Both the position numbers and the translations under genes were made by a program. From an uncultured Elusimicrobia bacterium (GTDB lineage: Bacteria > Elusimicrobiota > Elusimicrobia > FEN-1173), in assembly GCA_964482515.1 (NCBI GenBank), contig CAYZXT010000006.1, positions 28,521 to 92,520 of the forward strand: DNA of 64,000 bases, in the 5' to 3' direction. Shown piece by piece: positions 2,739 to 47,100 of the stretch. The notes under the pieces were generated by a model that saw only the letters and a program-made list of their open reading frames with translations, ran no database searches and had not been told where the DNA came from. Position 1 is the first letter of the stretch. Every line of letters starts with the position of its first letter.

Positions 2739-2802
2739 AAACAACAATCCCGCCCTGAAGTTTCCTTCAAGACGGGACCATGGAGAGTGAATGTACGGCC
2801 GG

Positions 2803-3167
2803 CTAACCTTTTTCCCAGAGCTTCTTGCCTTTGAAGCCGTCGCCGGGGGCGTCGTCCGACGGCGGGATCCTCCGCTTGAGCTCCGCGTCGTCCGCGGCGG
2901 CCACGAAACGGAACTCGATCTCCTCGGGACGGATCAGGCCGAGGTTCCGCCTGGCTTCCTGCTCGAGGAATTCGTCGTCCCTCTGGGCACGCGCCAGTTC
3001 AAGCTGTTTGTTCGCCAACCGCGCCTGGGCCTCCTGCAGTTTGGCCGCCAGCCGGCTGTATTCCCGCCGGCGCGAAATGTAACCGCGCACGCCGCTGCTG
3101 GAGGCCAGCATCACCAGGACGAAGGCCCCGATGGACAGCCAGAGGACGTTCGTCTGGACGAATTTTT

Positions 3168-3171
<4 letters not shown>
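2803..3171 (-). CDS. ftsB: FtsB/DivIC-like septum formation initiator (coiled-coil, single TM)
   Basis: It lies immediately downstream of eno, the classic eno-ftsB synteny. The coiled coil is [38 protein letters not shown]. The TM helix ([15 protein letters not shown]) is encoded upstream of the first canonical start (GTG 3114), so I extend to CTG 3171. This start is uncertain. Confidence 0.6.
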
Positions 3172-4529
<1,358 letters not shown>

Positions 4530-4560
4530 GGAAATTTCTCCTTAAGGTTATCTTGTTGTC

Positions 4561-4613
4561 ACCCCGGCGGAAGCCGGGGTCCAGATGAACTGGATTCCGG
4601 CTTGCGCCGGAAT
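4561..4613 (-). terminator. two tandem 8-bp GC-rich hairpins between the phosphohexomutase gene and eno
   Basis: The first hairpin is ACCCCGGC-GGAA-GCCGGGGT (4561-4580). The second is ATTCCGGC-TTGC-GCCGGAAT (4594-4613). Both share the core CCGGC-N4-GCCGG. There is no clear U-tract, so an intercistronic stabiliser or attenuator is equally possible. Confidence 0.35.
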
Positions 4614-4627
4614 GACTGCTTAAAAAT

Positions 4628-6082: not shown

Positions 6083-6284
6083 GGGGCGCAAGTCTCCTCG
6101 GAGCCTCGAGGGACTCCGCAACAGGTTTGAGCCGCTATCCTATCACAAGGTCAAAAAGCTGTCAACGGCGGTCTGAGAGGGAAAAACGATGTGAAATCCT
6201 GACCTTAACAGTCATTTTTTGGGCGAATGGAGGACAGAAACTCGGCCGGATGGTAGGATTGATTTTTTGCCGGATGCAAACAGC

Positions 6285-9200
6285 TTAAGCGGAGGTCAAG
6301 AAAAGGCCAAGAGCCTTCAGTCCTTCTTGCAGGCTCTCAACCAGGCGGAAAATCGGCACCAGGACCACAACGTCCTTGTAGACGCCCAATTCGACCTGGT
6401 CCGAAGCGAAAATCACCGCATTTTTGGGATCCAATTGCCCCGCCTTTTCCAAGGCCGACAACAGCCTGTCCATCCTCAAGATCGCTCCGTCCAGAAGCGA
6501 CACTTCCGCGCGGGCCGAAGCAATGAGCGAGGGTCTCTCGCCGGCCAGGATGATCCGGATGTTGCCTTGGCGCAACAGGACGTCGTAGTCGCGCATGAAT
6601 TCCTCCCGGTCCCTGCCCGCATTGAAGGCTGCGTCCGCCGACATGCCTTGCCAGAAATCCGGAGAGGCTTGGCGCGGATCGCGCACGATCAGGGTCAAGG
6701 TGTTCGCCGTATCCCCGGCCGTTCCCGCATTATTGGCGACGAAGGCCGCCAGCAGTCCCGACACGGAGGCGCGCGCCGCGCCCTTCTTCATCACATCCGC
6801 CGGAACTTCAGCGAAGACGTCTTTGCCGCCCCTCATCCGCGCGGAAACTTTCGTGAAGACGACGCGTCCGGCGTATGCGGCCAGAATGTCACTCCGGAAG
6901 GTTTCATGGCCCCGCGGCGACCAAGCATCGCCCGGCGCGTTGTCGCCCAAAGACTCCAAAGCCCGCCCCAGGACATAAGCGGCCCCCCGGTCCCCGCCCC
7001 TTGCCGATTCCCGCGCCAAACCCTTGGTCAAGGCCCCGCGCAGAGCCGCCGGGTCGGGCGTTCCGTCCACAAAAGCGTTGCTGGCCAGTCTGATGTGAAT
7101 CCGCGGCAGGCCCAGGGCGTCCACCCCGAAATTCCGCGCCGGAGCGATGCCGCGCAGCCAGACGCGGGCCCGGTCGCGGAACCCCGACTCCTTCACATGC
7201 CAAGAATCATCGACGGCCACAGGGACCGGAACAACGGAAACCTCCGAAACCGAATCTTGCCGGGCGGATAGGATCGCGCGGAACGCCGCGGACAGAAGAG
7301 CGGAGAAGACCATCGCCAGAACAATCCCGCCGGCCACGCCGCCCGCAAGAGACCCCGCAAGGAAACCCAAAGATACCGGCAGGACCTGCGCCGCGAAATA
7401 GGCCCACCGCTCGCTCACCACGCCCAAGCCGTGCAGCGCCTCGTGCCCGGGCACGCCCAGGATATAAAGGCCGGCGCGGGACAACACCTTGAAAACGGGG
7501 TTTGAATGATAGACGAAATGGGCGAGGGAAGGATTCAGGACTAGCGCGTGTGTGTTCTTTTCAAATTCCAATAAATCGACGCCGGGCTCAACGCGGACCG
7601 AGCGGAACCCGAACAGGGGCGGCGCGCGACCGTCGGGGGTTTCATAGGCCGCTCCCGAACGCGCAGCCGCCGCCAAAACCAATCGGAGAATCCCCATCAG
7701 GACCAGCCCCGCCAGGGGCCAAGCCGCCGCCGCGCCCAGAGAGCTGGCCGCAAAACCGAAGGACGCGGCCAAAAACTGGGCGGACACCAGGAACGCCGCG
7801 GCCGCCACGCCGAACAACGCCGCCGCCCACAGCCCCTGCCGCCAGGTTTCCCGGGACACGGCCCTGCGCTCGATGTCCTCAAACAGCCTGTCATAAGCAT
7901 CCGACTCTCCTTCCGCTTCGAACCAATCGCGAACTTTTTTCAACGCGGCGGAACGATCCACCAGCGTTTCCAAAAGCCTATTCAGCAATTCGCTCCTTGG
8001 TCCATGGGCCGTCGGTTCCGATTGAGCGTCCCTCTCGCGCGATGAATACGCCTTCGCGGCGTCCTCATAACCCATTATGTCCGAAACTTTCCCATCATCG
8101 CCCACGAAGTACACTTGCACATACTCCGGAACCCGACATTTCAAAATAAAGTCCAACATGGCCTTTTTGGGAAACGCAGCATTCACTTTAATCGTGCACG
8201 GGACCGTGATCCCCGTGGTCAACTCGTTTAGGACGCGATGGATTATCAACCATTCCGATAGACCTTCTAAATTTATACTAATTACGGATGAATTATCCTC
8301 GACCCGCGTTTCCTCCTTCGACAACGATCTCATAAGGCCGCGAAGAGTTCCCATCATCTCCTCTGTAGGATTGGTTGGTTCACCAAATTTTCCGGACAAC
8401 GCCCAGGCATGGTCGTATTGCTTGGACCCGCTATCAACTATCAAGTCCTTTGGATTCGGATGGTGGAGGAACAAATTGACGATCATCGCCTCGGGAAATT
8501 GGCCGTCAGAGACAAAGACTTTATGCAGGGCCCGCAACCCAAAAAGAGGAGACAAATCCTTCACCCGGCTGGCCTCCAAGTGAAGTATCCCCAGACTGGG
8601 CAAGGACCCCATGCCTTCGAGGGGTTCCTGTCTTTGTCCCACATTGACCAGCAACCCGAATACATTTTTTTCCACCGTGGCTGAAGGGCCAAACAGGTCC
8701 CTCGCCCGCGTTACTTGGCTTTCGAGAGTGGGGAAGCGATCCTCAGCGGCCGGGGCCGGCGTCGCAATGGGCCCCATATCGGCGAACTCTTCCGGGTGCG
8801 CGCGGCGATAAGCGACAGCCTCGGGATAGGCTATTGTTCTGAACGATTTAAAAAATCCGATCTTGACGGCCTCGGGTCGAGGGGAACTTAAAATGATCCT
8901 CGACAGCACGGCTTCGGAAAATTGCCCTTCTTCGATAACTATTTTTAAATTCCTTACGTTAAGGTATTGAACCATTTTCAGCATGTCGGAACCCTTTATG
9001 CTCGCTCCGACAAAAAAAGTAAATTCCCCGAAGGATGACGGGTGAATGCTGCTCTCATTGGCGGCTGCGGGCCCGACTATTGCTTTCAGGTCATTCGACA
9101 ATTCCGCCGCAATCACAGAATCATTGTATGACGGAAAGATATGATCCATGCGATACGTCTTCTTACCTTTTCCCGATCTGGAAATTTCAGCAATAAAAGC

Positions 9201-12200
9201 CTTCGGCGCAGGACTATAATCCTGATAAAAACTCCTGATATCCTTTTTACGAAATTTCCCCTCTGGAATACTCATGGTTTTCAGCCCTCGTAATCCACTG
9301 AAAACCCTCAAGTCGGAAGGGCCATCCTCCTTAATAATGATCGATTCGATGCTCGGGCACTTCCTCCAAAGGACGTCCCAGGAAACCGCATAGTCCCGGT
9401 CAAGCATTAACTCCAGGGGACCATCATCACGCAAATGAACTTGATTTTCGCCGAAGGTGTCAACGAGAATCCGCCGCTGCTCCTCGATCGTGGGGAAGGG
9501 GTCCGGCGTATCTGCAGGCTGGACAGTCCGCTGCGCGGCGGGCGGCGTTGTCCCGGGCAACGCCATGAGGGAGAACTGCTTTGGGTGCGCGCGGTAATAC
9601 GCGACAGCCTCGGAATAACTCATTGAACGAGACTCCCCCTCATCGGATGAAAAGATAAAATGAACGTTCTCGGGCACGGGGGAAGTTAAAATAAAAAAGG
9701 TCATGAAAAATTCGTCGATTTGAAATCCTTCAGACATCAGAAAGACTTCTCTCATTTCAGAAAAGCCCGTCAGTACCCTCAATTCATCGACGCCCAGCCC
9801 TTGAGAAAGGCGAATGCGTAATTGCCACATATCCTGCATAAACTCCGCTGTCACAGAACTCATCATGTTGTGTCGCCCGAGTTTTTCCCTGATTATCGCC
9901 CTGACTTCCTTGAAGCCGGACCCTGGAATGAAGTCCGCCGCCGAAAACCATTTCATGCCTCCAGACGGATTGTCTGAATAAATACGGATCCTTCCAGAGT
10001 TTTCAGCTTCGCGATAAAACCTTTCAAGTTCCACTCGATGAAACCTCCCGGCTGGAAGCTGGATATTGCGCAGACCCCTTATCCCTTCATAAAAGTTAAT
10101 ACTGAGGGTGCCGTTTTCCCCGACAATTATCGTCCTAATGCTCGGGCAATGCTTCCAAAGGGATTCACACTCCCTATAAGGAAATAAATCTCTATCATCC
10201 ACAGTTAACTCCAAATCCCCGTTCCTATCCACCTTCACTTTTTCGGGCCCGAAGATATCAATGAGCGCTTCACGCTGCTCCTCGATCGCGGGGAAGGGGT
10301 CCGGCGTATCAGCAGGCTGGACAGTCCGCTGCGCGGCGGGCGGCGTTGCCCCGGGCAACGTGACGGTGAACTCCTCCGGGTGCGCGCGGCAATAGGCGAC
10401 AGCCTTGGAATAATCCATAAAACGGGGGGTCTCCCCTTGCATTATAATCTCCTGAATCTCCTCAATCGAGACGCCCTCGGGAAAAGGAGCGCTCAGAACG
10501 ATTCGGGCCATGTCGGCATCCGTAAATTGATCATGATCCACAAATATCAGGATACTCGCTCGACGAGAGTATTCCGTCATTTTCATTAAGTCGGGAACCG
10601 TCGCAACCTTCGTAGGTTTAATCTCATACTTACGAGATACCCCCAGACGAACATAAATATCACGCGTCAAGTGGGGCGGGACGAATTCTCGGCACGCCTC
10701 TTCCATCTCGGATATTAAATTTTCGTTGCTCAATCCAGGGGTGAAGGTGCTCGCCGAATAACTTTGTCTTACTATTTCTTCATCCCACACATGAACGACA
10801 ATTCGCATGGGATCATTTTCATTCCCAAAAAAAAGGCCGACGTCGTCATCAGAAAATTTTCCCGGTGGAATAAAAATGGTTCTCAGCCCTCTTAATCCAT
10901 TGAAAATCCTCAAGTCGGAAGGGCCATCCTCCCTGATAATGATCGATTCGATGCTCGGGCACTTCTTCCAAAGGGCGTCCCAAGAAACCTCGTAGTCCCG
11001 GTCAAGCGTTAGCCCCAGGTTACCGTGGAGAAGCAAACGAACTTGATTTTCGCCGAAGGTCTCAACAAGAATCCGCCGCTGCTCCTCGATCGTGGGGAAG
11101 TGACCGGAGGCATCCAATACATTATCGGGATAAACAGAATCAACCGGCGCCTCCTTCAAAACGGGCGCCCGTTCCCTGTCGCGGCGGGCGACGGCGTAAA
11201 TGTAAGCCGCTTCCACGCGGGACTGCAGTTCCCGCGCGCTCATGATGATGTAAGGCGCTTCTTTCAGATAGGCGGCCGCCTGGGGCTCGTCCAATGTCCC
11301 GGAAACAACAACCACCTCGAACCCCCTGTCCTTGAGGAAATGGACGAACTCGCCGGCGATGAGATTGCCCCCGTTGGCCGGCAGGCCGTGAACGAGCAAC
11401 GGCGGCCGGGTCGAAGCGGTGGGCATGCCACCGCGGCGGAACCCCCGCAAGGGATTGCGCAGGAACTTGGGGAGATAGAGCGTTCCGGTCCCGGGCGGGC
11501 CGAACTCCCGGCCCGGAGTCGCACGCCGCTGCACGAAAGCGGAAGCTTCCGCGTCAAGGAGGGATGAAACCGTCGTGCTTAATTCCTTCATTTTTGAATA
11601 TCGGGACTCCTCACTCAGAACGCTGGGGACAGGACGCGCCGATACGGATTCAGAGATCTGGACATCGTTATTGTCGTCGCGAGCCTTCGATTCATGAGCT
11701 CCCTCAATTCCATCGTATCGGGAGCCGACCGTTTCCGAGGCAACCCGACCAAACAATCCCGCCAGCCGACCCATTTGCGATATCCGGATCCGCCCAAGGA
11801 ACCCCAAAAATCGGGTCAACCGAGAATCTTCGGTTGAGACCCCTTCTGCCCTGGCCGCCGACAACTTGATCCCGCCATAAACCATGGACGCCAATAAACT
11901 GAGTCCGACAATAATAACCAGCGGAAGATAATTCGGCATTCCACGCAACAGCTCGGGTTCAGGAATTCTGGGAATCATTGCCGGAAGCGCCGAAGATCCC
12001 GAATTCGCGTGAACAACAAGAAGAGCCAGGATTCCCGAAGCCAAAAGGACCCCCGCGGCCAATGCCAGCCGCCTCATCCGAAATCGCGACCCGGCCGGCG
12101 CTTTATTCGATTTCAATTTAGCTTGCGCGATGGCCAATATCTTCGCTTTCCTCGCCGTCAAATCCTTGTCTCCGAGAAATCCCAGGGCCGTCAGAATCGA

Positions 12201-15200
12201 CCGGGGCGCCTTATTGTCGGTGAGCTGCGCGATTATTTCCCGAAGGCGCTCTTCGGAGGCCAGGGGCAAGTCATCTTCCATCAAACCGAGCTCATCGCTC
12301 AAACTCTTTAATATTTCGTTGCGCTGATCCTGCAAATCCTCAACGACGTCCTCCAGCGGCTCCTCTGGAACCGCCCGTTCCTCCATCTCGCGCGGCGGGC
12401 CGGACAGGTCCACCTCCCCGATACGACCAAGGACTTTCCCAACGTCAACACTCCCCGGCCGTGGCAAAACCGATTTTTCCTTGGGAGAACGAACCGGGAC
12501 GGCACCAAGGCTTAGGAACTCACCGTCCAATTTGATCCTCTGCATGGCTTTCAGGGCAAGGTATTGCCGGTAAAGAATTTCATCCTCCTCCAGGGTCTCC
12601 GGGATACCGTTTTGAAAAATCTCATCCACAACGTCCAAATGCCGCAGGGCCAAGGCAAACGGGTTGAGGTTTACTTCCCCATACCGCTCCAACCAAGCCG
12701 ACGCGGCCGCTTCCAATTGCGTTCGCGATATTTCCTTCCTTCCGTAGGCGATCAGGGCCAGTTGGAATATTTTCTTCGGCGCCAGGGAAAACAGCCCCTT
12801 CCAGTCACCGGCAATCCCCCTCTCCAAGTCGCGCTGAAAATAGACCGACTCATGGTCATTGTCTTGCGTTATGCTTCCGGGGAAATGTTGCCGCATTGCC
12901 CTTTTGTGACGCAGATCCTCCAAATCTTGATACACATCCTCAAAGGGGTCCGCCGGGGCCTGCAACCCCGCGAGCGAAAGAAAAAAATCCGGCGCCGAAG
13001 TGGGGGTAAGCCCCGCGAAATCCCGAGTGAATAACCCATGTCCGGCTTCATGCTCCAGGGTGTTCAACCAATCTTGGCCATCGAACTGGTCCTCCCTAAA
13101 AGCGATGTCCACCTTCTGCGCTTTGTAGGTCCCAGCTGCGGACTGCCCCGCGGGCTTGAGGCTGATTGTCACCGGCCGTTGGTGGACAGGAAGGATGAAT
13201 TGGGCGATGCGGCCGATGGCCTTCACTTTGTCCAGGCCGCTTCTGAACTCCAGGGAAGCAAGCGCCTTCCGGCCGGGCAATTCTTGCCCCCTCAGCATCC
13301 TCCGCAGATAGATGGGGCCGTACACCCTCTCCACGGCCTCTTCCGCCGAAACGCCCGACGCCGCCACGAGCAGGGCCCGCTTGAATTCCCGCGGCGTGGG
13401 CCGCTCCCGAGACCGCGGCAGGGCGTTCTGTATCCAAAGGTGCGCGCGGACGATGTAAGCCATGTCCTCGTCCGACAGGGCCGGGGCCTTCGTCCCGAAT
13501 TCCGTGACGATGTCCAAAGCGTATTCCGATAAGTCATCCTTGTCGTAATCCATCTCGCGGCGGAAGATCACCCGGTTCTGCAAGGCCGTGGAAAGCCTTT
13601 CGCGGCCGCTGAAGTCGGCCCCGTTGATCGTGGCGATGAACGCAAAACCCTTCGCGTCGGTGTTATCGTCGGTCAGCACGTCGTTCAGCTTCCCTTCCAA
13701 ATAGCCGCTGGGCAATACATCCAACTCGCTGACCACTAGAACGACCCCGTTCTCCTTGGCCCAAACTATGGCCTTCTCAAGCTCGTCGAACCGCGGCGAG
13801 GCGTTGATGTGGCAAAAGCTGCGCGGGCCCGGCGCGGCCGCCCCCGCCTTGACCGCCTCATAACCGCTCGACTCCAGAACCCGCACCACGGTCACGTCCT
13901 TGCCGCGGCCGGAGGCTCCCTCCAAAATCATTCCCCGCTTTCCCGCCGCAAGCCCGTTCCGTTTCATACGATATTCCCGCATGATGAGGAAATCTCCCAC
14001 CGCCGCGGCCAACCTCATCGTGGTGCGCGATAGGGTAAGGGCCCTCGACCTATACAATTGGGCCCCCTCGTTGCGCAGATCCTCTATCCAGGCGTTTTGG
14101 AGAGCCTCCGCGTCCACCGCGAATTTCAGGCGGAGCGCGTGCCGGAGCGCGACGCGGCCCTCCGGACTCAAGCTCGGCGAGAACATTTCCCACGCCGCAA
14201 GGAGCGCTTCTTCCACGATATTGCCGGATCCGCTCAGCACCTGCGCCCGGGCGGACAGTTCCTGGAGGTCGCGCAAAGAAATTCCCTGTCCCTCCTCCCA
14301 CCCCGCCACCCGGCGAACGGTCTCAAATACCCCGAGCAGCAGGGCCCGCAAGGCCGCCGCGTTCGGCGCATCCGGCGACACGTATTCTTCGAGCCTTTGC
14401 CGGAAAAACGCCTCGTCGAATTCAGGGAAGGCGACGGTGGGGACGTGCGGGGCGAGGAAATCCTGATACTTTCTGTCCTGCAGGGTTTCCTGGTTCCCGG
14501 TGAAAACGACCTTCTTGCCCTCCATATCGATCTTGCGCCCTTCGATCCACATGTAGGGGGTTTCCCCTTCTCCCACGAACAGCCCCCCGAAGAACCGCCA
14601 AAAATCCGGCCGCGCCAGGTTCGCTTCGTCCAGGACCAGCAGCGCCGGCCCATCGTGCAAAGCCCAGCGCGTGATGTCGGCGAACGCGGAGGCCCTGCCG
14701 GTCTCATCGTCGTTCGAGTCCTGTTCCTGGGCGTCCACCCCGATCGTCACGGGCCCGAACATCCGCAGCCCCAGCGCGTCCGCCAAACCTTTTGCCGCAA
14801 AGCTTTTTCCCGTCCCGGGAGACCCTTTCAGGAACACCGCCGGGGATTTTGCCAATATTCTCCGCACCCGCCCCAAACGTTTATCCCAACTTTCCTCGAC
14901 CGGGCCGGCCTTGTCGTTGATGGAAGGAGCTTGATCAACGGACGCGTTCGCCTTTCGGAAAAGGGCGCGGTAGAAACCCTCCCGGTCATCGCCCAGGTGC
15001 GCCGCGATCAGCGCGTCCTGAATCAGCTCGAGCGCCCTCCCGGCGCCCGCGCGATCAAAACTTTCGGGCACGCCGGCTTCGTCCAACAAATCCAGGCTGA
15101 GGGTATCCGCGAATTCCCAAAAACGGTCCTTCCATGTGGCGGGAGCGACGATCTTGTTCATCGCCGCTTTCAGTTTCGGCCCATGAATGCTCCTCCCAGT

Positions 15201-18200
15201 CAGCCCCGCCTCCTTCGGCCGAAATGTCCGCCGCGCCGCCGTCCGCAGAAACGCGGCCACGTTCGGATCGTCCGCGTAATCGTCAAGATAAACGTCCTCA
15301 AAGGCCCGCATCCAATCCAGCGTGCCATCGGGGTTTCGAGCCTGGCGGCACAGGAGCCGGAGGCGTCCCAGGCTGAAATCCGCCCGAGCCGGATAGAGCC
15401 CGCGCCGCGCCGGCGGAGGGACCGTCTCGAAAGCCCTTCTCAAGGAGAGCACCTTCTCAATATCGCTTTCCGTGAGAGCTCCACTGAATTCGCGCTTCAA
15501 TTCCTCCACTATGTCCCGCACGGAAATGTCCAACACGGCGCGGTGAAGAACCGAGACGCCGGCGCCGCTCCCGATATGAGAAAGAAGGATCAAGCGTCCC
15601 GTTAAAACGTTTTCCCCTTTGCCGGCGAAGGGACGGACCTCGCCGTTCACCACGAGATAGGGATTTTCATGCAAAGCCGTTTCCAACTGGCGCAGGAGAT
15701 CCGGATTGGATTCCATCCCCGCCAAAACGACGGTTTCTCCCCGTTCCAAGGCCTCCAACACCTGCCTCTTGACCGCCCGCAAACGCCCCCCCGGCAACAG
15801 CTCGCTCGCCATCGATAGATCGTCCAGGATGGTCGCCGGCGTGACCGGATAAACAAGGGGGGGCTGGCCGTTCCGTTCGGAGACGTCCCGCATGATCCGC
15901 GCCAACAGGCCGGACGGGTCCGATCCTTCAACGAGCGACACCCGCCGGTCCCGCGCCATTTCCCACGACTCCGGATCCGGGGCCCTGGTCCGGCGGACCG
16001 CCGGCAGCATTCCACGATAACGCAACGGGACCTCCACGCCGACGCCCAATTCAATTTCCAATTCGCCGCCCATATGCAAAAGACGGTGCCACAGCGACTC
16101 CGGAATTTCCGGATCGGTTATAAGGACCCGGAGACGCCCTCCGTCCGCGCCCATCCGCTCCAGCAATCCCGCGCCCTGGGACAACGTCCCCTGGGAATCG
16201 ATGCGGGTGAACTCAAACAGCTGGTGCTGCGTTTCCCGGTTCAAGACCCACGCGCGCTCCGCCGGCCAGGCGGTCTCGCCCGCCGGCACGACCCGTTTAT
16301 TCTCCAAGGCGCGCCGCCCGTAGCCGCCCTCCGCCCAATGGACGGAAAAACCTTCCCGCGCCGCCACCCATTTTCCGTTGGAAAGGATCCCGCCGTTCAA
16401 GAGGGCCTGCCGGACCATGTGGGACAACCGGGTGTTGGGGATTCCCTGCTCATCTCGCCACACGCCCCCTTGGATCAAGAGGGGCCGCCCTTCCCTCATG
16501 GCCCGGACGAGTGCGCCCTCTTCCCAGCGCACGCTTCCGTTGGGCAGAAGCCGGTAGCGCGCGACCAGCGCATCCTTAATATCGATGTCGTCGGACTCGA
16601 AAAGTTCCGCGCGCAGGCCGTTGAAAGCCTCCGGATCGTCGACCTGGGACAAACCTTCCAGCGGATCCGCGTAATCCGCGTCCGCTTGGAATTCCCCGGT
16701 CAGGGAGCGTGAATAAAAATCAACCGAAAATTCACGCAGCTGGTCCTCCCGCACCGCCCCAACGATGCGGAGCGACGGAGAGGCCTTAACGCCCAAATAC
16801 TCCGGAGAGTCCCCGAACAGCTGATTGAATCCCGCCACGGTCTTTGGGTCGGAATTCGTGTAGTCCAGGAACAACACGCCGCCCCGCTCGATCAATTGAA
16901 GCAAGGGGCTTTTCGCCTCCCCAAACCGGCCGTTTATCACGCGCGCGGGATTGAGCAAATCATCCAAATCGGTGTCATCCCGCAGGGTCAGCCGCAAATA
17001 CGGAATGTTTCCGTTCGCGGCCACGATTTCCCTTAGCCGCACATCCAATGCCTCCACATCCCGGGGCGTATTCACGAAGGTCAACCCGCGACCTTCGTTC
17101 AATAGATCGGTCAGGCTCGGATCGGCCCACGGCGAACCCATCGTCATCGGGAAACGGCGGAATATTTTGTTCCACCCCGTGTGGACGGCAACGGCCAGAA
17201 CAAAGCCGATCACCATGGCCAGGAGGGAGTAAAGCGGTCCATCGAACCCGGACAGGAACAACCGGGGCGCGGCGAGGGCGGCGAGGTTGAATAAGACAAC
17301 GGCGAAAAGGCGGACGGCGAAATCAACGGGGGATTTATTTTCATGGCGGAAAACGAAAGACGCCTGGTGCGCGGCGTAATAAACCGCCGCCACCAGCCAG
17401 AACGACATGACTATCGCCAAAAGCAGCGGATTCGCCTCCAGCAACACAGCCTTCAAATTCCATGCCGCCATCAGGATGAGGCCAGGCGCGCGGCCCATCC
17501 AAAAGGCGCGCCAGCGCGTCAACGTCGGCTGCCCCCGCGCTTCGATTTCCTTCCGCGCCGAAGCGGCGGGAGCCAGGCCCGCTTCTTCAATCACGGAATA
17601 GCCAAGCAGCTTGTGACTGATCATAGGATTCCTCAGCCACTCCGGCGCATGCTTGACCGCATTTTCGTAATAGGCCTTCGTGCTCGACAGGATCAGCGAG
17701 CGGCTTCCCCACAGGTTTTTCCACCAAGGAACGCTCAACCTCCGCGGCGGACTGAACCTCACCGACTGAAAGGAATCAGCGCCTCCCACGGGGAATTCGG
17801 CGACCACCGACGGCGCGCCCGGTCGCGCAATCAACAAGCCGTTCTCTCCGAACCCGATACTCCACCCCCACCACGCCTTGGCTTTCTCAATCAGCGCGCG
17901 AAGATTTTTACGCCTTTCACCTGAGGGAAGTTTGTTTTCCCTCCACCGCGCCTGGCTGCCCTCAACAGTGGCGGCCAAGGCGTTCGCCTTCACGGCGAAA
18001 TCATGGGCCTGGATCCTTCGCTGGAAGGGTTCGGCCAACCGCCGAATCAGCCCCGGCGAGGTAAACCGTGCGAAGATCAGGGAGATGGGTTCTCCGGCGA
18101 AAATTTTCTCGATGGGGAGTGGATCGCGGGAGAAGATGTCCATGTAATTTTTGGCCTGATCGATGTTTTCCACCTTTGGCGTGACGACGACGTAAGACGC

Positions 18201-19853
18201 ATTCTTCCGCCGCCAAAGCGCCGTCATACCCTCGGTGTGGAACCCGCCGGTCACCAGGACGGCGGAGGTTTGCTTTTCTTCTTTCATTTTCCTGAGCAGG
18301 TTTTCGGTGAGGGCTTCATTGCGGGCCAAAGCCAGACGGCAGAAATCTTCGAACGGTTTCAGCAATTCCGCGCGTATGGCGGGAAAAGCCGGAGAGCCCG
18401 ACGACAGAGAGCGGGCCCGGTCCGCCATGTTGAGGATCAACGGGCGTCGTTCCGTATAATCGGCCCAATGCCGCGGCGTCATTTCCGTGCGGAGCAATTT
18501 CGTCAGCAGGGCCTGGTCGCGTCCCAACCCCGCCAGTTCCTTTTGCGCCGGCTCAAAAGTGAGCCCGGCTTCGACTGTTTTTTCCATCCGTTCCAACTCG
18601 TCCAACAACTTGTCCCGGTTTATGCGCTCCGCGGACTGGACGTAGGTCATATAATCGGACAACTGCGGATAGCCGGTCAGGTCGATGTTCTTTTCCCGGC
18701 AAAGATCGCGCATATACGCGTAATATTCCCCGTAGCTCCTTTGACCGGCGCGGTACTCGACGCTCGCCCGCACCAGTTCATCCAGGGACTCCCGGCTCAG
18801 TCGCGATACCAGGCGATCGATCAAATCAAGCCGCTCGCGTTCCACCTTTTTGAAATCCAGTTTTTTCTCCCACCGGATCGCCCGGGACAACAGGGCCACG
18901 TTGGGATAGGCCCCGGCATCCGCGCGGGAGGAAAGAAAATCCACGTAAGCGCCCAGCCCTGTTTTACCCGCCTGGAAAGTTTGATAGAAGCGGTCGAACT
19001 CCTTGAGCCCGGGCGAATAAATTTTTTCTTTCAGACCGCTCACGGCCTCGGCCAGACCCGAGAGGAACTCCTCCGCTTCCCTCCGGCGGTCCTGGGCCGA
19101 GAGCACCGCGCGGGTGTTGTCGGCGTAAAGGTCGCCCGTCTCCACGCCCCAGAGGAGCGGCGCGACCTCCGACACCAACCCCAAATATTCCGCACCGCCC
19201 ACGTATCCTTCCTCCAGGAAATAGTCCGCGAGCTGTTGGTTCATTTCTTTCCCGGCCTCGGGCAGGGCCTTGTATTTTTCCATCTCGAAGTAGCCCTCGG
19301 CGCCCTCCAACCCCACGAGCTTCACCCCGCGCCCATCCTTCAGTCCCTGCAGGATGCGGGCGATGTTCTTTTGCGCGTCGTAGGCGCCATGGATGTCTTG
19401 AATGTGGATGATGAGGGGCGAATCCGATTTAGCCAAATGGATTTCCCGGACGCTTCCATAGGGCAAGACCAATCGGGAAAGCCAAGCGGGAACAATCCCG
19501 TTCTTGGCCCACTTCACGTTTTCAGAGAGGTCATGGGCGGACAAGGGAGCCAGAGATGGGGCGAGGGTGGATCCGTTCAGGGTTTCGGGAAGTCCCAGCG
19601 GGATTTGGCCGGTGGGAAGCTGGGCGAGGAGTTGATAGTCCCGGGATGAAAGACTGTTCGCGCGGCCCGGGTTATTTTGCGCCGAAGAGCGGGATACGGA
19701 TCTTCGTTCCTCCCAAAAGTTCGCCTCGGCCAAGGGCGATGCGACCGTTGAATAAAATAACAAGGCGCAGAGGGCGGCGGCGAGGCTCTTTTTGCTCGGT
19801 CCTTGCGCGCTGAAAGGCCTGAAAATCGAGCGGGTTCGGCGGATTATATCCAT
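6285..19853 (-). CDS. giant (4,522 aa) polytopic membrane protein: conserved N-domain, multi-AAA+ block, two HExxH motifs, 4 tandem modules, C-terminal domain
   Basis: ATG 19853 to TAA 6285-6287, uninterrupted. Composition is protein-like throughout, while overlapping ORFs are R/P/G/A-rich shadows. Motifs read directly: GSPGTGKS (14802-14825) with LLVLDEANLA (~14611-14645); GASGRGKD (13896-13919) with VVLVVSELD (~13715-13750); IATINGADFSGRERLSTALQNRVIF (~13560-13640); HEAGH (13038-13052); HEALH (7431-7445). Hydrophobic clusters lie near 17150-17480, 11860-12075 and 7270-7850. Confidence 0.9.
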   Translation of the reverse strand: MDIIRRTRSIFRPFSAQGPSKKSLAAALCALLFYSTVASPLAEANFWEERRSVSRSSAQNNPGRANSLSSRDYQLLAQLPTGQIPLGLPETLNGSTLAPSLAPLSAHDLSENVKWAKNGIVPAWLSRLVLPYGSVREIHLAKSDSPLIIHIQDIHGAYDAQKNIARILQGLKDGRGVKLVGLEGAEGYFEMEKYKALPEAGKEMNQQLADYFLEEGYVGGAEYLGLVSEVAPLLWGVETGDLYADNTRAVLSAQDRRREAEEFLSGLAEAVSGLKEKIYSPGLKEFDRFYQTFQAGKTGLGAYVDFLSSRADAGAYPNVALLSRAIRWEKKLDFKKVERERLDLIDRLVSRLSRESLDELVRASVEYRAGQRSYGEYYAYMRDLCREKNIDLTGYPQLSDYMTYVQSAERINRDKLLDELERMEKTVEAGLTFEPAQKELAGLGRDQALLTKLLRTEMTPRHWADYTERRPLILNMADRARSLSSGSPAFPAIRAELLKPFEDFCRLALARNEALTENLLRKMKEEKQTSAVLVTGGFHTEGMTALWRRKNASYVVVTPKVENIDQAKNYMDIFSRDPLPIEKIFAGEPISLIFARFTSPGLIRRLAEPFQRRIQAHDFAVKANALAATVEGSQARWRENKLPSGERRKNLRALIEKAKAWWGWSIGFGENGLLIARPGAPSVVAEFPVGGADSFQSVRFSPPRRLSVPWWKNLWGSRSLILSSTKAYYENAVKHAPEWLRNPMISHKLLGYSVIEEAGLAPAASARKEIEARGQPTLTRWRAFWMGRAPGLILMAAWNLKAVLLEANPLLLAIVMSFWLVAAVYYAAHQASFVFRHENKSPVDFAVRLFAVVLFNLAALAAPRLFLSGFDGPLYSLLAMVIGFVLAVAVHTGWNKIFRRFPMTMGSPWADPSLTDLLNEGRGLTFVNTPRDVEALDVRLREIVAANGNIPYLRLTLRDDTDLDDLLNPARVINGRFGEAKSPLLQLIERGGVLFLDYTNSDPKTVAGFNQLFGDSPEYLGVKASPSLRIVGAVREDQLREFSVDFYSRSLTGEFQADADYADPLEGLSQVDDPEAFNGLRAELFESDDIDIKDALVARYRLLPNGSVRWEEGALVRAMREGRPLLIQGGVWRDEQGIPNTRLSHMVRQALLNGGILSNGKWVAAREGFSVHWAEGGYGRRALENKRVVPAGETAWPAERAWVLNRETQHQLFEFTRIDSQGTLSQGAGLLERMGADGGRLRVLITDPEIPESLWHRLLHMGGELEIELGVGVEVPLRYRGMLPAVRRTRAPDPESWEMARDRRVSLVEGSDPSGLLARIMRDVSERNGQPPLVYPVTPATILDDLSMASELLPGGRLRAVKRQVLEALERGETVVLAGMESNPDLLRQLETALHENPYLVVNGEVRPFAGKGENVLTGRLILLSHIGSGAGVSVLHRAVLDISVRDIVEELKREFSGALTESDIEKVLSLRRAFETVPPPARRGLYPARADFSLGRLRLLCRQARNPDGTLDWMRAFEDVYLDDYADDPNVAAFLRTAARRTFRPKEAGLTGRSIHGPKLKAAMNKIVAPATWKDRFWEFADTLSLDLLDEAGVPESFDRAGAGRALELIQDALIAAHLGDDREGFYRALFRKANASVDQAPSINDKAGPVEESWDKRLGRVRRILAKSPAVFLKGSPGTGKSFAAKGLADALGLRMFGPVTIGVDAQEQDSNDDETGRASAFADITRWALHDGPALLVLDEANLARPDFWRFFGGLFVGEGETPYMWIEGRKIDMEGKKVVFTGNQETLQDRKYQDFLAPHVPTVAFPEFDEAFFRQRLEEYVSPDAPNAAALRALLLGVFETVRRVAGWEEGQGISLRDLQELSARAQVLSGSGNIVEEALLAAWEMFSPSLSPEGRVALRHALRLKFAVDAEALQNAWIEDLRNEGAQLYRSRALTLSRTTMRLAAAVGDFLIMREYRMKRNGLAAGKRGMILEGASGRGKDVTVVRVLESSGYEAVKAGAAAPGPRSFCHINASPRFDELEKAIVWAKENGVVLVVSELDVLPSGYLEGKLNDVLTDDNTDAKGFAFIATINGADFSGRERLSTALQNRVIFRREMDYDKDDLSEYALDIVTEFGTKAPALSDEDMAYIVRAHLWIQNALPRSRERPTPREFKRALLVAASGVSAEEAVERVYGPIYLRRMLRGQELPGRKALASLEFRSGLDKVKAIGRIAQFILPVHQRPVTISLKPAGQSAAGTYKAQKVDIAFREDQFDGQDWLNTLEHEAGHGLFTRDFAGLTPTSAPDFFLSLAGLQAPADPFEDVYQDLEDLRHKRAMRQHFPGSITQDNDHESVYFQRDLERGIAGDWKGLFSLAPKKIFQLALIAYGRKEISRTQLEAAASAWLERYGEVNLNPFALALRHLDVVDEIFQNGIPETLEEDEILYRQYLALKAMQRIKLDGEFLSLGAVPVRSPKEKSVLPRPGSVDVGKVLGRIGEVDLSGPPREMEERAVPEEPLEDVVEDLQDQRNEILKSLSDELGLMEDDLPLASEERLREIIAQLTDNKAPRSILTALGFLGDKDLTARKAKILAIAQAKLKSNKAPAGSRFRMRRLALAAGVLLASGILALLVVHANSGSSALPAMIPRIPEPELLRGMPNYLPLVIIVGLSLLASMVYGGIKLSAARAEGVSTEDSRLTRFLGFLGRIRISQMGRLAGLFGRVASETVGSRYDGIEGAHESKARDDNNDVQISESVSARPVPSVLSEESRYSKMKELSTTVSSLLDAEASAFVQRRATPGREFGPPGTGTLYLPKFLRNPLRGFRRGGMPTASTRPPLLVHGLPANGGNLIAGEFVHFLKDRGFEVVVVSGTLDEPQAAAYLKEAPYIIMSARELQSRVEAAYIYAVARRDRERAPVLKEAPVDSVYPDNVLDASGHFPTIEEQRRILVETFGENQVRLLLHGNLGLTLDRDYEVSWDALWKKCPSIESIIIREDGPSDLRIFNGLRGLRTIFIPPGKFSDDDVGLFFGNENDPMRIVVHVWDEEIVRQSYSASTFTPGLSNENLISEMEEACREFVPPHLTRDIYVRLGVSRKYEIKPTKVATVPDLMKMTEYSRRASILIFVDHDQFTDADMARIVLSAPFPEGVSIEEIQEIIMQGETPRFMDYSKAVAYCRAHPEEFTVTLPGATPPAAQRTVQPADTPDPFPAIEEQREALIDIFGPEKVKVDRNGDLELTVDDRDLFPYRECESLWKHCPSIRTIIVGENGTLSINFYEGIRGLRNIQLPAGRFHRVELERFYREAENSGRIRIYSDNPSGGMKWFSAADFIPGSGFKEVRAIIREKLGRHNMMSSVTAEFMQDMWQLRIRLSQGLGVDELRVLTGFSEMREVFLMSEGFQIDEFFMTFFILTSPVPENVHFIFSSDEGESRSMSYSEAVAYYRAHPKQFSLMALPGTTPPAAQRTVQPADTPDPFPTIEEQRRILVDTFGENQVHLRDDGPLELMLDRDYAVSWDVLWRKCPSIESIIIKEDGPSDLRVFSGLRGLKTMSIPEGKFRKKDIRSFYQDYSPAPKAFIAEISRSGKGKKTYRMDHIFPSYNDSVIAAELSNDLKAIVGPAAANESSIHPSSFGEFTFFVGASIKGSDMLKMVQYLNVRNLKIVIEEGQFSEAVLSRIILSSPRPEAVKIGFFKSFRTIAYPEAVAYRRAHPEEFADMGPIATPAPAAEDRFPTLESQVTRARDLFGPSATVEKNVFGLLVNVGQRQEPLEGMGSLPSLGILHLEASRVKDLSPLFGLRALHKVFVSDGQFPEAMIVNLFLHHPNPKDLIVDSGSKQYDHAWALSGKFGEPTNPTEEMMGTLRGLMRSLSKEETRVEDNSSVISINLEGLSEWLIIHRVLNELTTGITVPCTIKVNAAFPKKAMLDFILKCRVPEYVQVYFVGDDGKVSDIMGYEDAAKAYSSRERDAQSEPTAHGPRSELLNRLLETLVDRSAALKKVRDWFEAEGESDAYDRLFEDIERRAVSRETWRQGLWAAALFGVAAAAFLVSAQFLAASFGFAASSLGAAAAWPLAGLVLMGILRLVLAAAARSGAAYETPDGRAPPLFGFRSVRVEPGVDLLEFEKNTHALVLNPSLAHFVYHSNPVFKVLSRAGLYILGVPGHEALHGLGVVSERWAYFAAQVLPVSLGFLAGSLAGGVAGGIVLAMVFSALLSAAFRAILSARQDSVSEVSVVPVPVAVDDSWHVKESGFRDRARVWLRGIAPARNFGVDALGLPRIHIRLASNAFVDGTPDPAALRGALTKGLARESARGGDRGAAYVLGRALESLGDNAPGDAWSPRGHETFRSDILAAYAGRVVFTKVSARMRGGKDVFAEVPADVMKKGAARASVSGLLAAFVANNAGTAGDTANTLTLIVRDPRQASPDFWQGMSADAAFNAGRDREEFMRDYDVLLRQGNIRIILAGERPSLIASARAEVSLLDGAILRMDRLLSALEKAGQLDPKNAVIFASDQVELGVYKDVVVLVPIFRLVESLQEGLKALGLFLTSA
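8040..11100 (-). repeat. four in-frame tandem protein modules (~805, 798, 762 and ~700 nt) inside giant ORF 1
   Basis: Module starts are marked by (P/H/R)FPT(I/L)E(E/S)Q at nt ~11100, 10295, 9497 and 8735. Each has two LRR-like halves and ends in (Y/M)xEAVAYxRAHPEEF-type linkers. Hand-counted DNA identity between copies: 85/88 (9475-9562 vs 10273-10360), 58/60 (9439-9498 vs 11041-11100), 115/125 (9281-9405 vs 10883-11007). Confidence 0.85.
13560..17150 (-). other. multi-AAA+ (AAA_5/MoxR/midasin-like) block, two units with intact Walker A/B and upstream degenerate units
   Basis: There are two P-loop/Walker-B pairs (see the CDS entry), each followed by an ATxN...GR..L..AL.NR-type segment. Upstream units lack the P-loop Lys but keep Walker-B-like strands (GGVLFLDYTNSDPKTVAGFNQLF; GETVVLAGMESNPDLLRQLETAL). 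Confidence 0.6.
18085..19722 (-). other. conserved N-terminal domain of giant ORF 1 (paralogous to 44230-45870)
   Basis: Alignable by eye block by block with giant ORF 2: FWEERR/FWQDRR; IHIQDIHGAYDAQKNI/VLVQDAHEIYSAQLNI; LVGLEGAEG/LIGLEGAAG; LWGVETGDLY/MLGVETPTLY; LDFKKVERERLDLIDRLVSRL/LDFKAVESERLQLVKILSHRL; VLVTGGFHTEG...VVVTPKV/VIVVGGFHAPA...VTVTPKV; PLPIEKIFAGE/VPLEKMFLGE. Confidence 0.85.
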
Positions 19854-19994: not shown

Positions 19995-21299
19995 TTATTG
20001 TTTGGTTCGCGGGGAAAGATATTCGGCCAAATGAAGGGTCTTAATTTTGGATTTAGCGCGGCGCAGGCCGAACCGGACCTGGAGCAGGCAGGAGATGCTG
20101 GAGGTGAGAACGTAGTCCGCCCCAGTCGAAAGGATGTTCTTGGTCTTGCGGTCCAGCACCGCGCGGGAAATCTCCGGGTGGACGAAACTGTAGGTCCCCC
20201 CGCCGCCGCAGCATTGCTCCGCTTCGGGCAACTCCCGGTAATCGATGTTCGCGGACCGGGCGAGGATCTGCCGCGGCGGATCGACGATCTTCTGGGCGTA
20301 GCGCGCCTTGCAGGGGTCGTGGTAGGTGACTTTGTTGTTTTGTTCAAGCGCCGGCGACCGAAGGCCTTTTTCCAAAAACCATTCGCTGAGGTCGCGCGTG
20401 CGCCGTGAAACGGTTTCCGCCCGGCGCAGCCAGTCGGGTTCGCCGTCGAACAACTGCGGATATTCTTTGATTGTCGAGGAGCAGGAGGAATCATCCACCA
20501 GGATGATCGCTTTCGGATATTTCTCCAACTCGACGATGTTCTTGCGGGCCATGGCCCGCGCCGCGTCGAGGTCGCCGTAGCTGACGCCCGGCATGCCGCA
20601 GCAAACGTTGTCGGCGCAGCCGGACTTGAAACCCGCCGAGCGTATGATCCGCGCGGTGGCCTCGCCCACCTGCGGCATGATGAAGTTCGATCCGCAGGCG
20701 ACGAACTGAATGATTTCCGCGTCCGGCGGAGGCGTTGCGTCGCCAAGCCTGTCGCGTAAGAACGTCGAAGGGACTTCCTCCGCCAGTTCTTCCGCGTCCG
20801 CGAGTTTGGGGCTGATCATCCGCAGCAAACCGGCGCGGTTCATCCAGCGGCTGACGCCCAGGCGCTTGCCGATAAACAGAATTTTCAGGAACGGCTCGAA
20901 CACCTTCGGCCGCGGCAGCAGGACGCGCAGGACGAACTTCAGGAACAGCGGCTGGCCGTGCTTCTCCGTGATCTTTTCCCGGGCCGCCACCATCAGCTTC
21001 GCCGTGGGAACCTCGGAAAAACACACCGACGTGCAGATGCCGCAGAGCAAACAGGTGGAGAAAAGCTTTTCCGCCTCGGCCGGGTCCGCGAGGCGGCCTT
21101 CCAGCACCGCGCGAAACGCCTGGTTCCGCCCGCGCGGCGACAGACCCTCGTCGCCCGTGGCCAGATAGGTCGGGCAGAACGACGTGCAGAAGCCGCAGCG
21201 GTTGCAGTGCATCGCGTCCGCGTAGTAGGCCTTGTCGGCCGGGCGGTTCAAAGCCGCCGGGCGGGAGATGAGGTCGATCTTTGACGGTTCGTCGGGCAT
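19995..21299 (-). CDS. glcF: glycolate oxidase-type Fe-S subunit (GlcF-like, 2x 4Fe-4S + 2x CCG domains)
   Basis: CNRCGFCTSFCPTY and CLLCGICTSVC ferredoxin motifs; CCGMPG and QCCGGGGTY cysteine-rich CCG motifs. Confidence 0.8.
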   Translation of the reverse strand: MPDEPSKIDLISRPAALNRPADKAYYADAMHCNRCGFCTSFCPTYLATGDEGLSPRGRNQAFRAVLEGRLADPAEAEKLFSTCLLCGICTSVCFSEVPTAKLMVAAREKITEKHGQPLFLKFVLRVLLPRPKVFEPFLKILFIGKRLGVSRWMNRAGLLRMISPKLADAEELAEEVPSTFLRDRLGDATPPPDAEIIQFVACGSNFIMPQVGEATARIIRSAGFKSGCADNVCCGMPGVSYGDLDAARAMARKNIVELEKYPKAIILVDDSSCSSTIKEYPQLFDGEPDWLRRAETVSRRTRDLSEWFLEKGLRSPALEQNNKVTYHDPCKARYAQKIVDPPRQILARSANIDYRELPEAEQCCGGGGTYSFVHPEISRAVLDRKTKNILSTGADYVLTSSISCLLQVRFGLRRAKSKIKTLHLAEYLSPRTKQ

Positions 21300-21300
21300 A

Positions 21301-44116: not shown

Positions 44117-47100
44117 ATGGCATCAAAACCGGTTTTCAACGCACGCAAATCCTGTTTGACCCGCTCGGTCGCCGCCGGGACGGCGCTCCTGTTCCTGGGA
44201 TCGACCGTCCTCTCCCCTTGGGCCGAAGCGAGTTTCTGGCAGGACCGGCGGAAAGCCGTCGAGTCATCGCAGCGTGACCCCGAAGCCGCGCAACAGTTCG
44301 CCCAACTCCCCCGGGCGCTTTCCGATTTGAACGGCGCCCTCCCGCGGGTCGCGAATTCCTTCCCCGACCGCCAAGCCCTCACCGACATTCCCTCCGTCCA
44401 AACGGACGGCATTTCCCGCAAAGACGTAGAACATCTGCCGTCGTGGCTGACCTCCCTTCCCGCGACCTACGGCGACATCCAGAAAATACGCCTGGTTACC
44501 CGGCCGGAAGAACATCCCCTCGTCGTCTTGGTGCAGGACGCCCATGAAATTTATTCCGCCCAGCTCAACATCTCGCACGTTCTGGAACACCTGGATAAAA
44601 ATTCCCAGGGCCAACGGCTGCTGATCGGGCTGGAAGGCGCCGCGGGGCCGCTCGATCTTAAAACTTACCGCCGATCCGCCGACCGCCGCCGCCAGGCCAT
44701 CGTTTCGGACGTCCTGCTCGAGACGAAACTGCTGAGCGGACCGGAACATTTCGGCTTCACGGCGGAGCGCGAACCCCGGATGCTGGGCGTCGAAACGCCT
44801 ACGCTCTACATCGAAAACGTCCAGGCCTATCAGGAATTGCTCCCCAGGAAAGACGCGTTCAAGGAACAGCTCTCCGCCTTCGATTTTTCCCTGAAACCGG
44901 CCAAAGATAAATTCTTCAGCCTCACGCTCTGGGCCCTGGACGAAAACATCGCCTCCTACCACAAAGGGTCCCTCGACCTCCTGCATTACGTGAAGTTTCT
45001 GTCCAAACAGGTCGAGCTCGGAAAGGATTTCCCGGAAACCCGCCAATTGCTGGACGTCCTGGCGCTCGAGGATTCCCTGGATTTCAAGGCCGTGGAAAGC
45101 GAGCGCCTCCAGCTCGTTAAAATACTCTCCCACCGCCTGGACAAGGCGGCGCTCAACGGTTTATTGCAGGCCAGCCTCGCCTACAAAATGGGGCGCATAT
45201 CCTACGGCGCGTACCACGAACACCTCCGCATCCTGACCCGGAACGCCGGCGTCGACCTCTCCCGCTTCCCCGGGTTCAACGTCTACATCCAGTACGTTCT
45301 GCTGTCGGAAAAAATCGACAAGTACACGTTGTTCGACGAAGTCAACGCTCTCAAAGAAACCGTCGTGGACCGTCTGGGGTCCAGCCAGGGCCAAAAAGAA
45401 CTGCTTCGCCTTTCCGAGGACATCCGCCTGCTGGAAAGTTTGTCGGAACAACAGTTCGGCCCCACCGAGTGGGAGCGATACTCGGCGCGGCGCGATGAAA
45501 TCCTGCGCATCCCGCAGCGCATCGCCGCGTTGTCCCATGACGCGCAGCCGTCGCCTTCGGCGGTCGCGTCGTTCCAGGAAACGCTCCCCCTGTTTGAACG
45601 TTTCTACCGCGCGGCCGACGCCCGCAACGGCGCCCTGATCGGGAACCTTCTCGAAGGCATGCAGCCCGCCGCGTCCGGACAAACGGCGGCCGTGATCGTG
45701 GTCGGCGGTTTCCACGCGCCCGCGATCGAAAAACTCCTGGGCGACAAAAACATTTCCGTCGTCACGGTCACGCCCAAGGTCGGCCCCGTCGACAAAGCGT
45801 CCCGCTATCTGGACGTTTTCGCGCTGAAGCACGTCCCGTTGGAGAAAATGTTCCTGGGCGAAAAGCTTTACATGGCGCCCGTGCGATTGACGGGCACGAA
45901 CGAGGCGATGGCGGCGATCCAACCAGCGAGAACAACCGATGATTTGAAGCGGGTCTATCTGACCTACGATTATATTCTCGACCAGCTGGGAGAGACCGGG
46001 AGAAAAATCAAGGCGTTCGGGGATCTCGACAAACACATCGAGTCAACTTTTGATCGCGCCCACGGCGTATGGTTCTTCAAGGTCCTAATGCCGGATGGGA
46101 GCAACCCAATTTATCTTTGCGGAGCGGAAACGGCAGGCGCCCGCGAAAAAGTAATCTCCGCTCTTGGTTATGCCCCAAGCGGTTTGAAATGGAAAATCGA
46201 CAAGCAGGAAGACGATATTGCGCTCGTCATCATTTCCGATCGAGCGGCCGAGAAATACCCCTTCTTACAGGCAAAACCATCCCTGACTTCCTGGGTCAAG
46301 GACGCGGTGGATTTCCTGCGCCAGCCGCCCACGGTCGCCGTGGCGGGTTTTGTCGCCGTCACCGCTTTAGTCGCTCAATACGCCATTGTCATTCTCGGCT
46401 TGGGAGTTCCGGCAGCTTTGATGATGGGAATGGCGTGGGGCGTCATTGTTCCCGTCCTTATCATTCTTATGGGCCAGTTGCCGCGATTCGCGCGAATGCC
46501 GGCTTTCGCTCCGGCAATGATGCGCGCCTCGAACAACTCACAACAACCGGAGGAGGTTTCCCCGAGCGCCCCGCTTTTCATGCAGTCCACCTCCCAGGGC
46601 GGAAAATCGGCAGTTAACGCTAATTCAACGGAAGAAACCCGCGCCATCAAGGCCTGGATCAGGGAGCAATTGGATTTAATGTCGGAGGAATTAGGCAAAA
46701 CCCCGGACACCTATGAGGAGATCCTGCGTCACAGCGACGAGGCTCTGACGGCTATCGCCCAACGGATCATCGACGGTACGTTAAACCGGCATGCAGCCAT
46801 CAACGTGGACCCAGACGCGCCCCCGGTCAAGACGACGGACGAGGAACTGAACATCGGCGTTTACGCGGTGGCCGCAAACCCTCTGCACTGGGGCCATATC
46901 CTGCTCGCTCTCGACGCCGTCGCCTATCACGGCGTGGACCAGGTAGTGTTCATCCCGCAGGGCGAAGACGAACGCAAACCCGACCTCGACAAGCTGAACA
47001 CCGAGCAGCGGCACGAAATCGTTCCGGCCGTCTTGGCCAATTTCGCGCCATTCTTTAAATATTCCCCCCTCGGGCTCGGTAACAAATACGACGGCGAAAC

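Follow-up and report, generated by a model that had tools for sequence, protein, structure and literature searches.

A TIKI-like module as the probable N-terminal head of giant membrane proteins in Elusimicrobia

Two giant ORFs in a 64-kb stretch of Elusimicrobia DNA (the window, by which we mean the whole of the sequence analysed) share an N-terminal module that, judged from its sequence and from a structural model, is probably a new and diverged hydrolase head of the TIKI/TraB/PrgY/ChaN/Ere superfamily. The module would be membrane-tethered and extracytoplasmic and would form the constant N-terminus of a class of giant multi-pass proteins essentially restricted to Elusimicrobia. The fold and the likely chemistry are already known; what appears to be new is the family itself, the helical expansion of its core, a Q-D-x-H variant of the first candidate active-site motif and the use of such a domain as the head of giant proteins. 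A literature search found no paper on the family in the library covered, and searching for Elusimicrobia together with Tiki or TraB returned nothing relevant.

The first of the two ORFs, A (6285..19853, minus strand), encodes 4522 aa and is identical to database protein P0002. The second, B (44117..49825, plus strand), encodes 1902 aa from the ATG at 44117 and is identical to database protein P0003. In the program-made listing of ORFs, B begins at a TTG at position 44084 (1913 aa), whereas the public gene call starts it at the ATG. P0002 and P0003 both lie on a 116-kb NCBI contig. The window is from an Elusimicrobia genome, as all close relatives of its enolase with an organism name belong to that phylum (62-79% identity). 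Together A and B make up 30% of the window, and a six-frame HMM scan found exactly two copies of the domain within its 64 kb, those of A and B. BLASTP with compositional adjustment aligned the two N-termini in a single collinear HSP with 208 identities over 589 positions (35%, E=3e-97). This is far beyond chance and bears out the original prediction that the N-terminal ~550 aa of the two ORFs are paralogous. When the full-length proteins were compared by BLASTP, the sole HSP joined A 22-598 to B 16-592 (E=7e-86), and no further A/B similarity was detected beyond this N-terminal match. The conserved span measured in A runs from E43 to E588, in agreement with the limits proposed earlier (18085-19722 in A and 44230-45870 in B, corresponding to aa ~45-590 of A and the equivalent part of B), and translation recovered all of the previously listed motifs at their coordinates in both ORFs. 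Since A and B have closer relatives elsewhere (49% and 45%, respectively, compared with 35% to each other) and rank 141st and 60th in each other's match lists, the sequence comparisons indicate that they are old paralogs.

Profile searching, which had been suggested as the means of defining the family and its phyletic range, gave about 8,000 clusters at 50% identity for a family nearly confined to Elusimicrobia. When 1.84 billion representative proteins were scanned exhaustively with HMMER and a profile of three sequences, 9186 clusters matched at E<=1e-3, 7966 at E<=1e-10 and 5506 at E<=1e-30. This exhaustive approach was needed, as word-indexed protein searches with the domain or with a 30-sequence profile returned only one or two matches. 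The domain occupied residues ~1-600 in all of the 150 best matches, which were proteins of 445-7623 aa (median 2402). A pattern-seeded scan of one genome per species yielded 50 loci, 47 of which are labelled Elusimicrobia or Elusimicrobiota, and one 3.6-kb Omnitrophota contig bears a genuine partial family member. An apparent archaeal member (L039, labelled 'Nanoarchaeia') was rejected as a case of misbinning because 11.3 kb of its contig match an Elusimicrobia contig at 100% identity. We regard the family as essentially restricted to Elusimicrobia. Individual MAGs carry at least 5-9 copies each, and at five loci a second copy lies less than 10 kb away. The complete genes in the locus scan encode 1409-3901 aa, and several exceed 4000 aa at the edge of the locus. 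A candidate stand-alone form of 613 aa (P0001) was set aside: the complete genes seen all encode at least 1409 aa, and this gene ends only 42 nt from the end of its contig and therefore provides no evidence for a stand-alone domain.

The statement that the module belongs to no named family holds at the level of family models, since neither Pfam nor NCBIfam contains a model that matches the shared N-terminal region at threshold, but it gives way at the level of superfamily, where the fold, the PF04187 matches and the motifs provide a place. The only Pfam model to recur among family members was PF04187 ('Haem-binding uptake, Tiki superfamily, ChaN'), with matches in 6 of the 30 full domains (best E 6e-6) and in 11 of the 31 sequences from which the insert had been removed. 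All of these matches fell below the gathering score of 27.7 bits, with A itself scoring 17.3-17.5 bits, and all lay on the region from R511 to GGFH539, where profile positions ~158-205 of 213 were aligned. PF01963 matched a single member of 31 (E 0.11, below the gathering threshold), phmmer and profile searches against PDB sequences, using the full domain or a core-only profile, returned no TIKI protein, and hhalign against the single sequence of Escherichia coli YbaP aligned the RN…GxxH part with a non-significant E of 0.32. AlphaFold2 modelling with 25 and then 49 family sequences gave a mean pLDDT of 75.8 and then 81.9, with values mostly above 85-90 across aa 120-565. The predicted core is of the alpha/beta type, with a central parallel beta-sheet flanked by helices, and matches the superfamily fold. 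Foldseek searches with the whole model against PDB and BFVD gave nothing significant, the results being swamped by long-helix noise. A separate fold search, the recurrent sub-threshold PF04187 matches and the pattern of catalytic motifs together lead us to place the module as a probable diverged member of the TIKI/TraB/ChaN/Ere superfamily, at the superfamily level only. It falls outside the ChaN family proper, with scores below 27.7 bits and no contiguous domain of ~210 residues, and it does not map cleanly onto a characterised Pfam family, given that its placement is at the superfamily level, its match is below the gathering score and its core carries a helical expansion of ~255 aa.

BLASTP, the family HMM and conservation delimit the whole conserved module in A to aa 43-590 (18084..19727, minus strand, as are all features of A below), and its counterpart in B runs from E37 to K583, numbered from the M12 start (44225..45865, plus strand). 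The leader of A (aa 1-44; 19722..19853) has an n-region with a net charge of ~+3 (the n-region is positive in 99% of family members), followed by an h-region of ~21 aa that carries no charge and has a conserved Asn in mid-helix, and by small-x-small sites (PLAEA). In the family the h-region is followed by the consensus A-[H/P/Y]-A-A-E-A-N-F-W-x-E-R-R, and AlphaFold2 models aa 19-59 of A as a single helix. The FWEERR motif of A (aa 46-51; 19701..19718), in which W47 and R50 are invariant, corresponds to FWQDRR in B (44234..44251, plus strand), and the linker after the leader (~60 aa) is modelled with low confidence and contains a LAQLP motif. The N-terminal half of the TIKI-like core (aa 122-239; 19137..19490) has predicted strands at 133-139, 147-153, 179-182, 186-188 and 233-237, and E222, E238 and Y243 are conserved as well. 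Inserted in the core is an all-helical subdomain of ~12 helices (aa 240-494; 18372..19136), recognised from the AlphaFold2 model and from conservation, which has conserved motifs of its own (LDFKxVExER, YRxG..YGxY, YxxYV, E419 and W463). The C-terminal half of the core (aa 495-566; 18156..18371), to which the weak PF04187 match maps, consists of a helix at 495-525, a strand at 530-536, a further helix and a strand at 553-559 that carries the TPK motif. Beyond the core lies a conserved tail motif that is predicted to be unstructured (DPLPIEKIFAGE in A, aa 577-588; 18090..18125), whose family form, YLDxFAxDPxPLEKLFxGE, ends at residue 588 in A numbering.

The D/E-x-H, GLEG and GGFH motifs, whose conservation the original prediction had singled out for inspection, appear to be the active-site motifs of a TIKI-type hydrolase, because they occur in the same order, with the same spacing and at the same strand ends as in RRSP and Bcr135 and are conserved in 142 of 142 representatives. 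The first acid and the first His lie in Q152-D153-I-H155 of A (QDIH; 19389..19400) and in Q-D-A-H of B (44534..44545, plus strand), at the end of strand 147-153, and compare with E3900/H3902 of RRSP. The candidate catalytic Glu follows 28 residues past H155 in G-L-E183-G (GLEG; 19302..19313; in B, G-L-E-G at 44627..44638, plus strand), a spacing equal to that of H3902-E3930 in RRSP and of H85-E113 in Bcr135. R511-N512 (18318..18323; R-N in B, 45623..45628, plus strand) would supply the superfamily's conserved basic residue, as do R4001 in RRSP and R228-N229 in E. coli YbaP. The second GxxH is G-G-F-H539 (GGFH; 18237..18248; in B, G-G-F-H at 45704..45715, plus strand), which ends strand 530-536 and places the second His 28 residues past R511, compared with 29 in RRSP (R4001-H4030). 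Thus D153-x-H155, E183 and H539 sit at the ends of predicted strands 147-153, 179-182 and 530-536, respectively, and the set formed by D153, H155, E183, R511 and H539 is intact in every representative, one of which has Glu in place of Asp. We infer the equivalence of these five residues to the superfamily's catalytic set from motif order, spacing and strand positions rather than from a three-dimensional superposition.

In RRSP the experimentally defined catalytic set comprises E3900, H3902, E3930 and H4030 together with the essential R4001, which is required for activity and has been proposed to act in substrate recognition; the corresponding His-Glu pair of Bcr135 is H85/E113. In Ere enzymes, and by extension in the active TIKI proteins, the His-Glu pair activates the water that attacks an ester or peptide carbonyl, and a metal is needed by Tiki and not by RRSP. 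By analogy, the module would use its His-Glu pair to activate water against the carbonyl of an ester or peptide, whether or not a metal takes part, and the helical subdomain (~255 aa) would serve as a substrate-binding lid. Since the five residues are absolutely conserved across paralogs that are only ~30% identical, the module resembles an enzyme and not a scaffold.

The charge and hydrophobicity pattern of the leader is Sec-like and includes plausible signal-peptidase sites, which suggests that the head is probably exported, with either the downstream TM cluster or a leader that stays uncleaved keeping it at the membrane. The leader of A may be either a signal peptide or a signal anchor; its earlier description as a signal anchor is plausible, and its conservation (the mid-helix Asn, a Glu at -4 and the invariant Trp and Arg) exceeds what a generic signal peptide needs. 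Across the family the cluster of TM helices begins at a median residue of 761, past a variable stretch of ~170 aa after the module. Since the module thus lies behind a Sec-type leader and ~170 aa ahead of the TM cluster, it is most likely membrane-tethered and extracytoplasmic, and a periplasmic location would fit this layout. The arrangement may be likened to that of PrgY/TraB and Tiki, in which the TIKI domain is extracellular and tethered by transmembrane segments. Crude hydrophobicity-based counts of TM helices over the family are a mixture of odd and even. ORF A can be read as having its head outside, three TM helices and its AAA+ domain inside. In B an apparent two-helix hairpin behind the domain would leave the nucleotide-dependent cargo and the head on one and the same side of the membrane, and ATP-dependent cargo so placed sits uneasily with an exported head.

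Beyond the head the proteins are mosaics, of which a median of 39% has any BLAST relative among 126 other representatives. The cargo domains vary from protein to protein and include GT2, protein kinase, alpha-amylase, GH26, HATPase_c, DnaJ and SpoIIE domains; A carries AAA_5, and B carries a NadD-like nucleotidyltransferase together with an HD domain. No neighbouring gene (immunity protein, chaperone or secretion partner) is conserved at the 50 loci, and neither the PADLOC defence-system models nor toxin families gave a match. The largest cluster of flanking ORFs proved to be an artefact of antisense ORFs. As a separate observation, the members of the second flanking-ORF cluster are neighbouring proteins that have a ~120-aa domain in common and are otherwise different.

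Comparison with known members of the superfamily brings out the differences. ChaN (PF04187; PDB 2G5G) is a stand-alone haem binder of ~255 aa, whereas the module spans ~450 aa, has its core split by the 255-aa helical subdomain, retains every residue of the catalytic set and forms part of giant proteins. The enzymes of the Ere family (EreA/B/C, Bcr135/136; PDB 6XCQ, 2RAD, 2QGM, 3B55) are soluble and cytoplasmic and have ~400 aa; the module has no HMM-detectable sequence similarity to them, and its first acid is an Asp within Q-D-x-H. TraB/PrgY/GumN and Tiki proteins (PF01963; YbaP; PDB 8BQS chain DQ) have the same order of motifs as the module, namely strand-GxxH, strand-E, R-N and strand-GxxH (GSIH41, E67, R228-N229 and GALH252 in YbaP), but the known proteins of this group have 250-500 aa, whereas the module heads proteins of 1,400 to >7,000 aa. 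Between the Glu strand and the Arg helix lie ~70 aa in RRSP and ~160 in YbaP, a region of variable length in the superfamily that has here expanded into the 255-aa helical subdomain. In RRSP (DUF5), PMT C1-C2 and HopBA1 the TIKI domain is a variable effector cargo, whereas here it forms the invariant head at the N-terminus. Not all TIKI members are enzymes: ChaN binds haem, and PMT is without the catalytic set.

The similarity between the two ORFs could in principle be an artefact of low complexity or composition, of a chimeric assembly or of spurious ORFs, since the window has a GC content of ~0.6 and long spurious antisense ORFs do occur in it, such as 18003-19649 on the plus strand opposite the domain. 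We give this explanation next to no credence, and it is excluded by the E-value of 3e-97 obtained with compositional adjustment, by thousands of homologues from independent assemblies that have the domain at the same position, and by a confidently predicted fold with position-specific conservation. The module is rather unlikely to be a non-catalytic ectodomain for ligand binding or sensing, in the manner of ChaN and with the helical subdomain as a sensor of the four-helix-bundle type, so that the giants would be receptor-like proteins signalling to cytoplasmic output enzymes. The layout of the proteins and part of their cargo agree with such a role, but an invariant pentad (142 of 142) is expected of an enzyme and unneeded by a binder, the matches to sensor domains are non-significant long-helix similarities, and most of the cargo (GT2, amylase, GH26, AAA+, NadD-like and HD domains) is not of a signalling type.

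A further alternative is that the module is a constant head that serves to traffic or translocate polymorphic effectors or toxins; the giant protein would then be exported as a whole, and its variable C-terminal enzymes would act in another cell. A conserved N-terminus followed by a hypervariable mosaic of C-terminal enzymes, with many paralogs per genome and tandem copies, is what such proteins would look like, and cytoplasm-type enzymes (kinase, DnaJ, AAA+ and HD) behind a Sec-like leader also fit. The TIKI superfamily also includes several domains of toxins or effectors (RRSP, PMT and HopBA1), and according to a proposal in one paper, phyla with many huge proteins, including Elusimicrobia, tend to be associated with hosts. 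Polymorphic toxin systems likewise combine a constant head with variable cargo, but known polymorphic toxins vary in a short C-terminal tip and not over thousands of residues, and here the 50 loci contain no conserved adjacent gene that could encode an immunity protein, chaperone or secretion partner. The internal TM clusters along the proteins favour integral membrane proteins over secreted toxins, and PADLOC and toxin-family matches are absent. We consider secreted effectors quite unlikely.

Under the reading that we prefer, that of a membrane-tethered TIKI-type hydrolase head, the fact that every paralog keeps the full catalytic set suggests that each giant protein probably needs an active head of its own, and it makes a role on the head's own polypeptide attractive. 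More speculatively, the head could act in cis in self-processing or self-anchoring, with the conserved unstructured tail motif as a candidate site. Such activity might take the form of self-cleavage at the DPxPLEKLFxGE tail or at the leader/FWxERR junction, or of covalent attachment to the envelope. We think it unlikely, if appealing, that the TIKI-like head is indeed a cis-acting processing or sorting device and so defines a class of giant modular membrane proteins that is specific to the phylum and new to the literature.

Huge proteins that have no functional assignment are enriched in Elusimicrobiota (PMC11573180), and our results show that a large share of the huge unannotated proteins of Elusimicrobia belong to one family with a common N-terminal module. 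With a predicted fold, a probable active site and specific residues that can be mutated, this module turns a set of anonymous giant ORFs into a testable system, and the analysis can directly seed a new Pfam/InterPro family for the TIKI clan. The known architectures of the TIKI superfamily would be extended by one in which variable, multi-enzyme membrane giants carry a constant hydrolase head. If the head does act in cis, much of the lineage-specific proteome of Elusimicrobia would be organised by a new system for protein maturation or anchoring.

Two loci carrying genes of the family that shares the approximately 550-residue, TIKI-like N-terminal head domain are labeled as lying outside the Elusimicrobia. 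The first, on a MAG contig assigned to Nanoarchaeia (DATDTA010000086.1), is 100% identical over 11,287 bp to an Elusimicrobia contig (MGUU01000016.1), and this identity led us to reject it as an archaeal member, since the contig is almost certainly misbinned or contaminating Elusimicrobia sequence. The second, on a 3.6-kb contig of an Omnitrophota MAG (L046, positions 3072-3613; 67 bits), reads ILIQDAHGIYGAQ … VALEGGKG, with no FWxERR motif in its leader. This partial sequence is a genuine member of the family, placed outside the Elusimicrobia by its label: either the family truly extends beyond the phylum here, or this contig has been misbinned as well.

Some family genes appear broken or degenerate. 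At L011 (positions 9950-14400), a locus from a long-read MAG with contig names of the form "tig…", the gene is split across three reading frames, probably because of a frameshift sequencing error or because it is a pseudogene; its counterpart in the close relative L037 is intact and encodes 2313 aa. In addition, one neighbor of P0001, a 613-aa database protein with the head domain, is a 2650-aa protein with a kinase-like APH domain (L052, positions 414-8495), of which residues 45-162 match positions 479-595 of the head-domain profile, the C-terminal quarter only, and which may carry a truncated or degenerate head.

Directly upstream of the giant gene ORF A, genes for a GlcF-like CCG/4Fe-4S protein, a GlcD-like FAD oxidase and ComEC occupy positions 19995-25516 (minus strand) of the window, and the ordinary nature of these genes suggests that ORF A lacks a dedicated operon partner. 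The largest cluster of apparent neighbors consists of homologous ORFs antisense to the head domain (18 loci plus the window). The ATG-initiated ORF of 548 aa opposite this domain of ORF A (18003-19649, plus strand) is read as no gene but as an artefact that arises from the GC-rich codon usage of the sense strand.

Downstream of the head, the cargo of ORF A contains four internal repeats of about 265 aa each (aa 2919-3960; window positions ~7974-11099, minus strand), all of which begin with FP(T/A)(I/L)E(E/S)Q and two of which are preceded by the identical stretch PPAAQRTVQPADTPDPFP. GC content is lower across this region (0.51-0.55 versus ~0.62 elsewhere), and TRF identified no DNA tandem repeat there at periods up to 500. 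The cargo of the second giant gene, ORF B, weakly matches a NadD-like nucleotidyltransferase (46841-47188, plus strand; NCBIfam E 2.5e-8) followed by an HD/dGTPase-like region (47708-48274, plus strand; E 1.9e-6), both scoring far under the equivalog cut-offs. Finally, ORF A cargo includes a MoxR/dynein-like AAA_5 domain (14619-14837, minus strand; Pfam E 3.4e-10) with the P-loop GSPGTGKS at aa 1677, as well as two HExxH motifs that are possible zinc-protease sites, LEHEAGHG (aa 2268) and GHEALHG (aa 4137).
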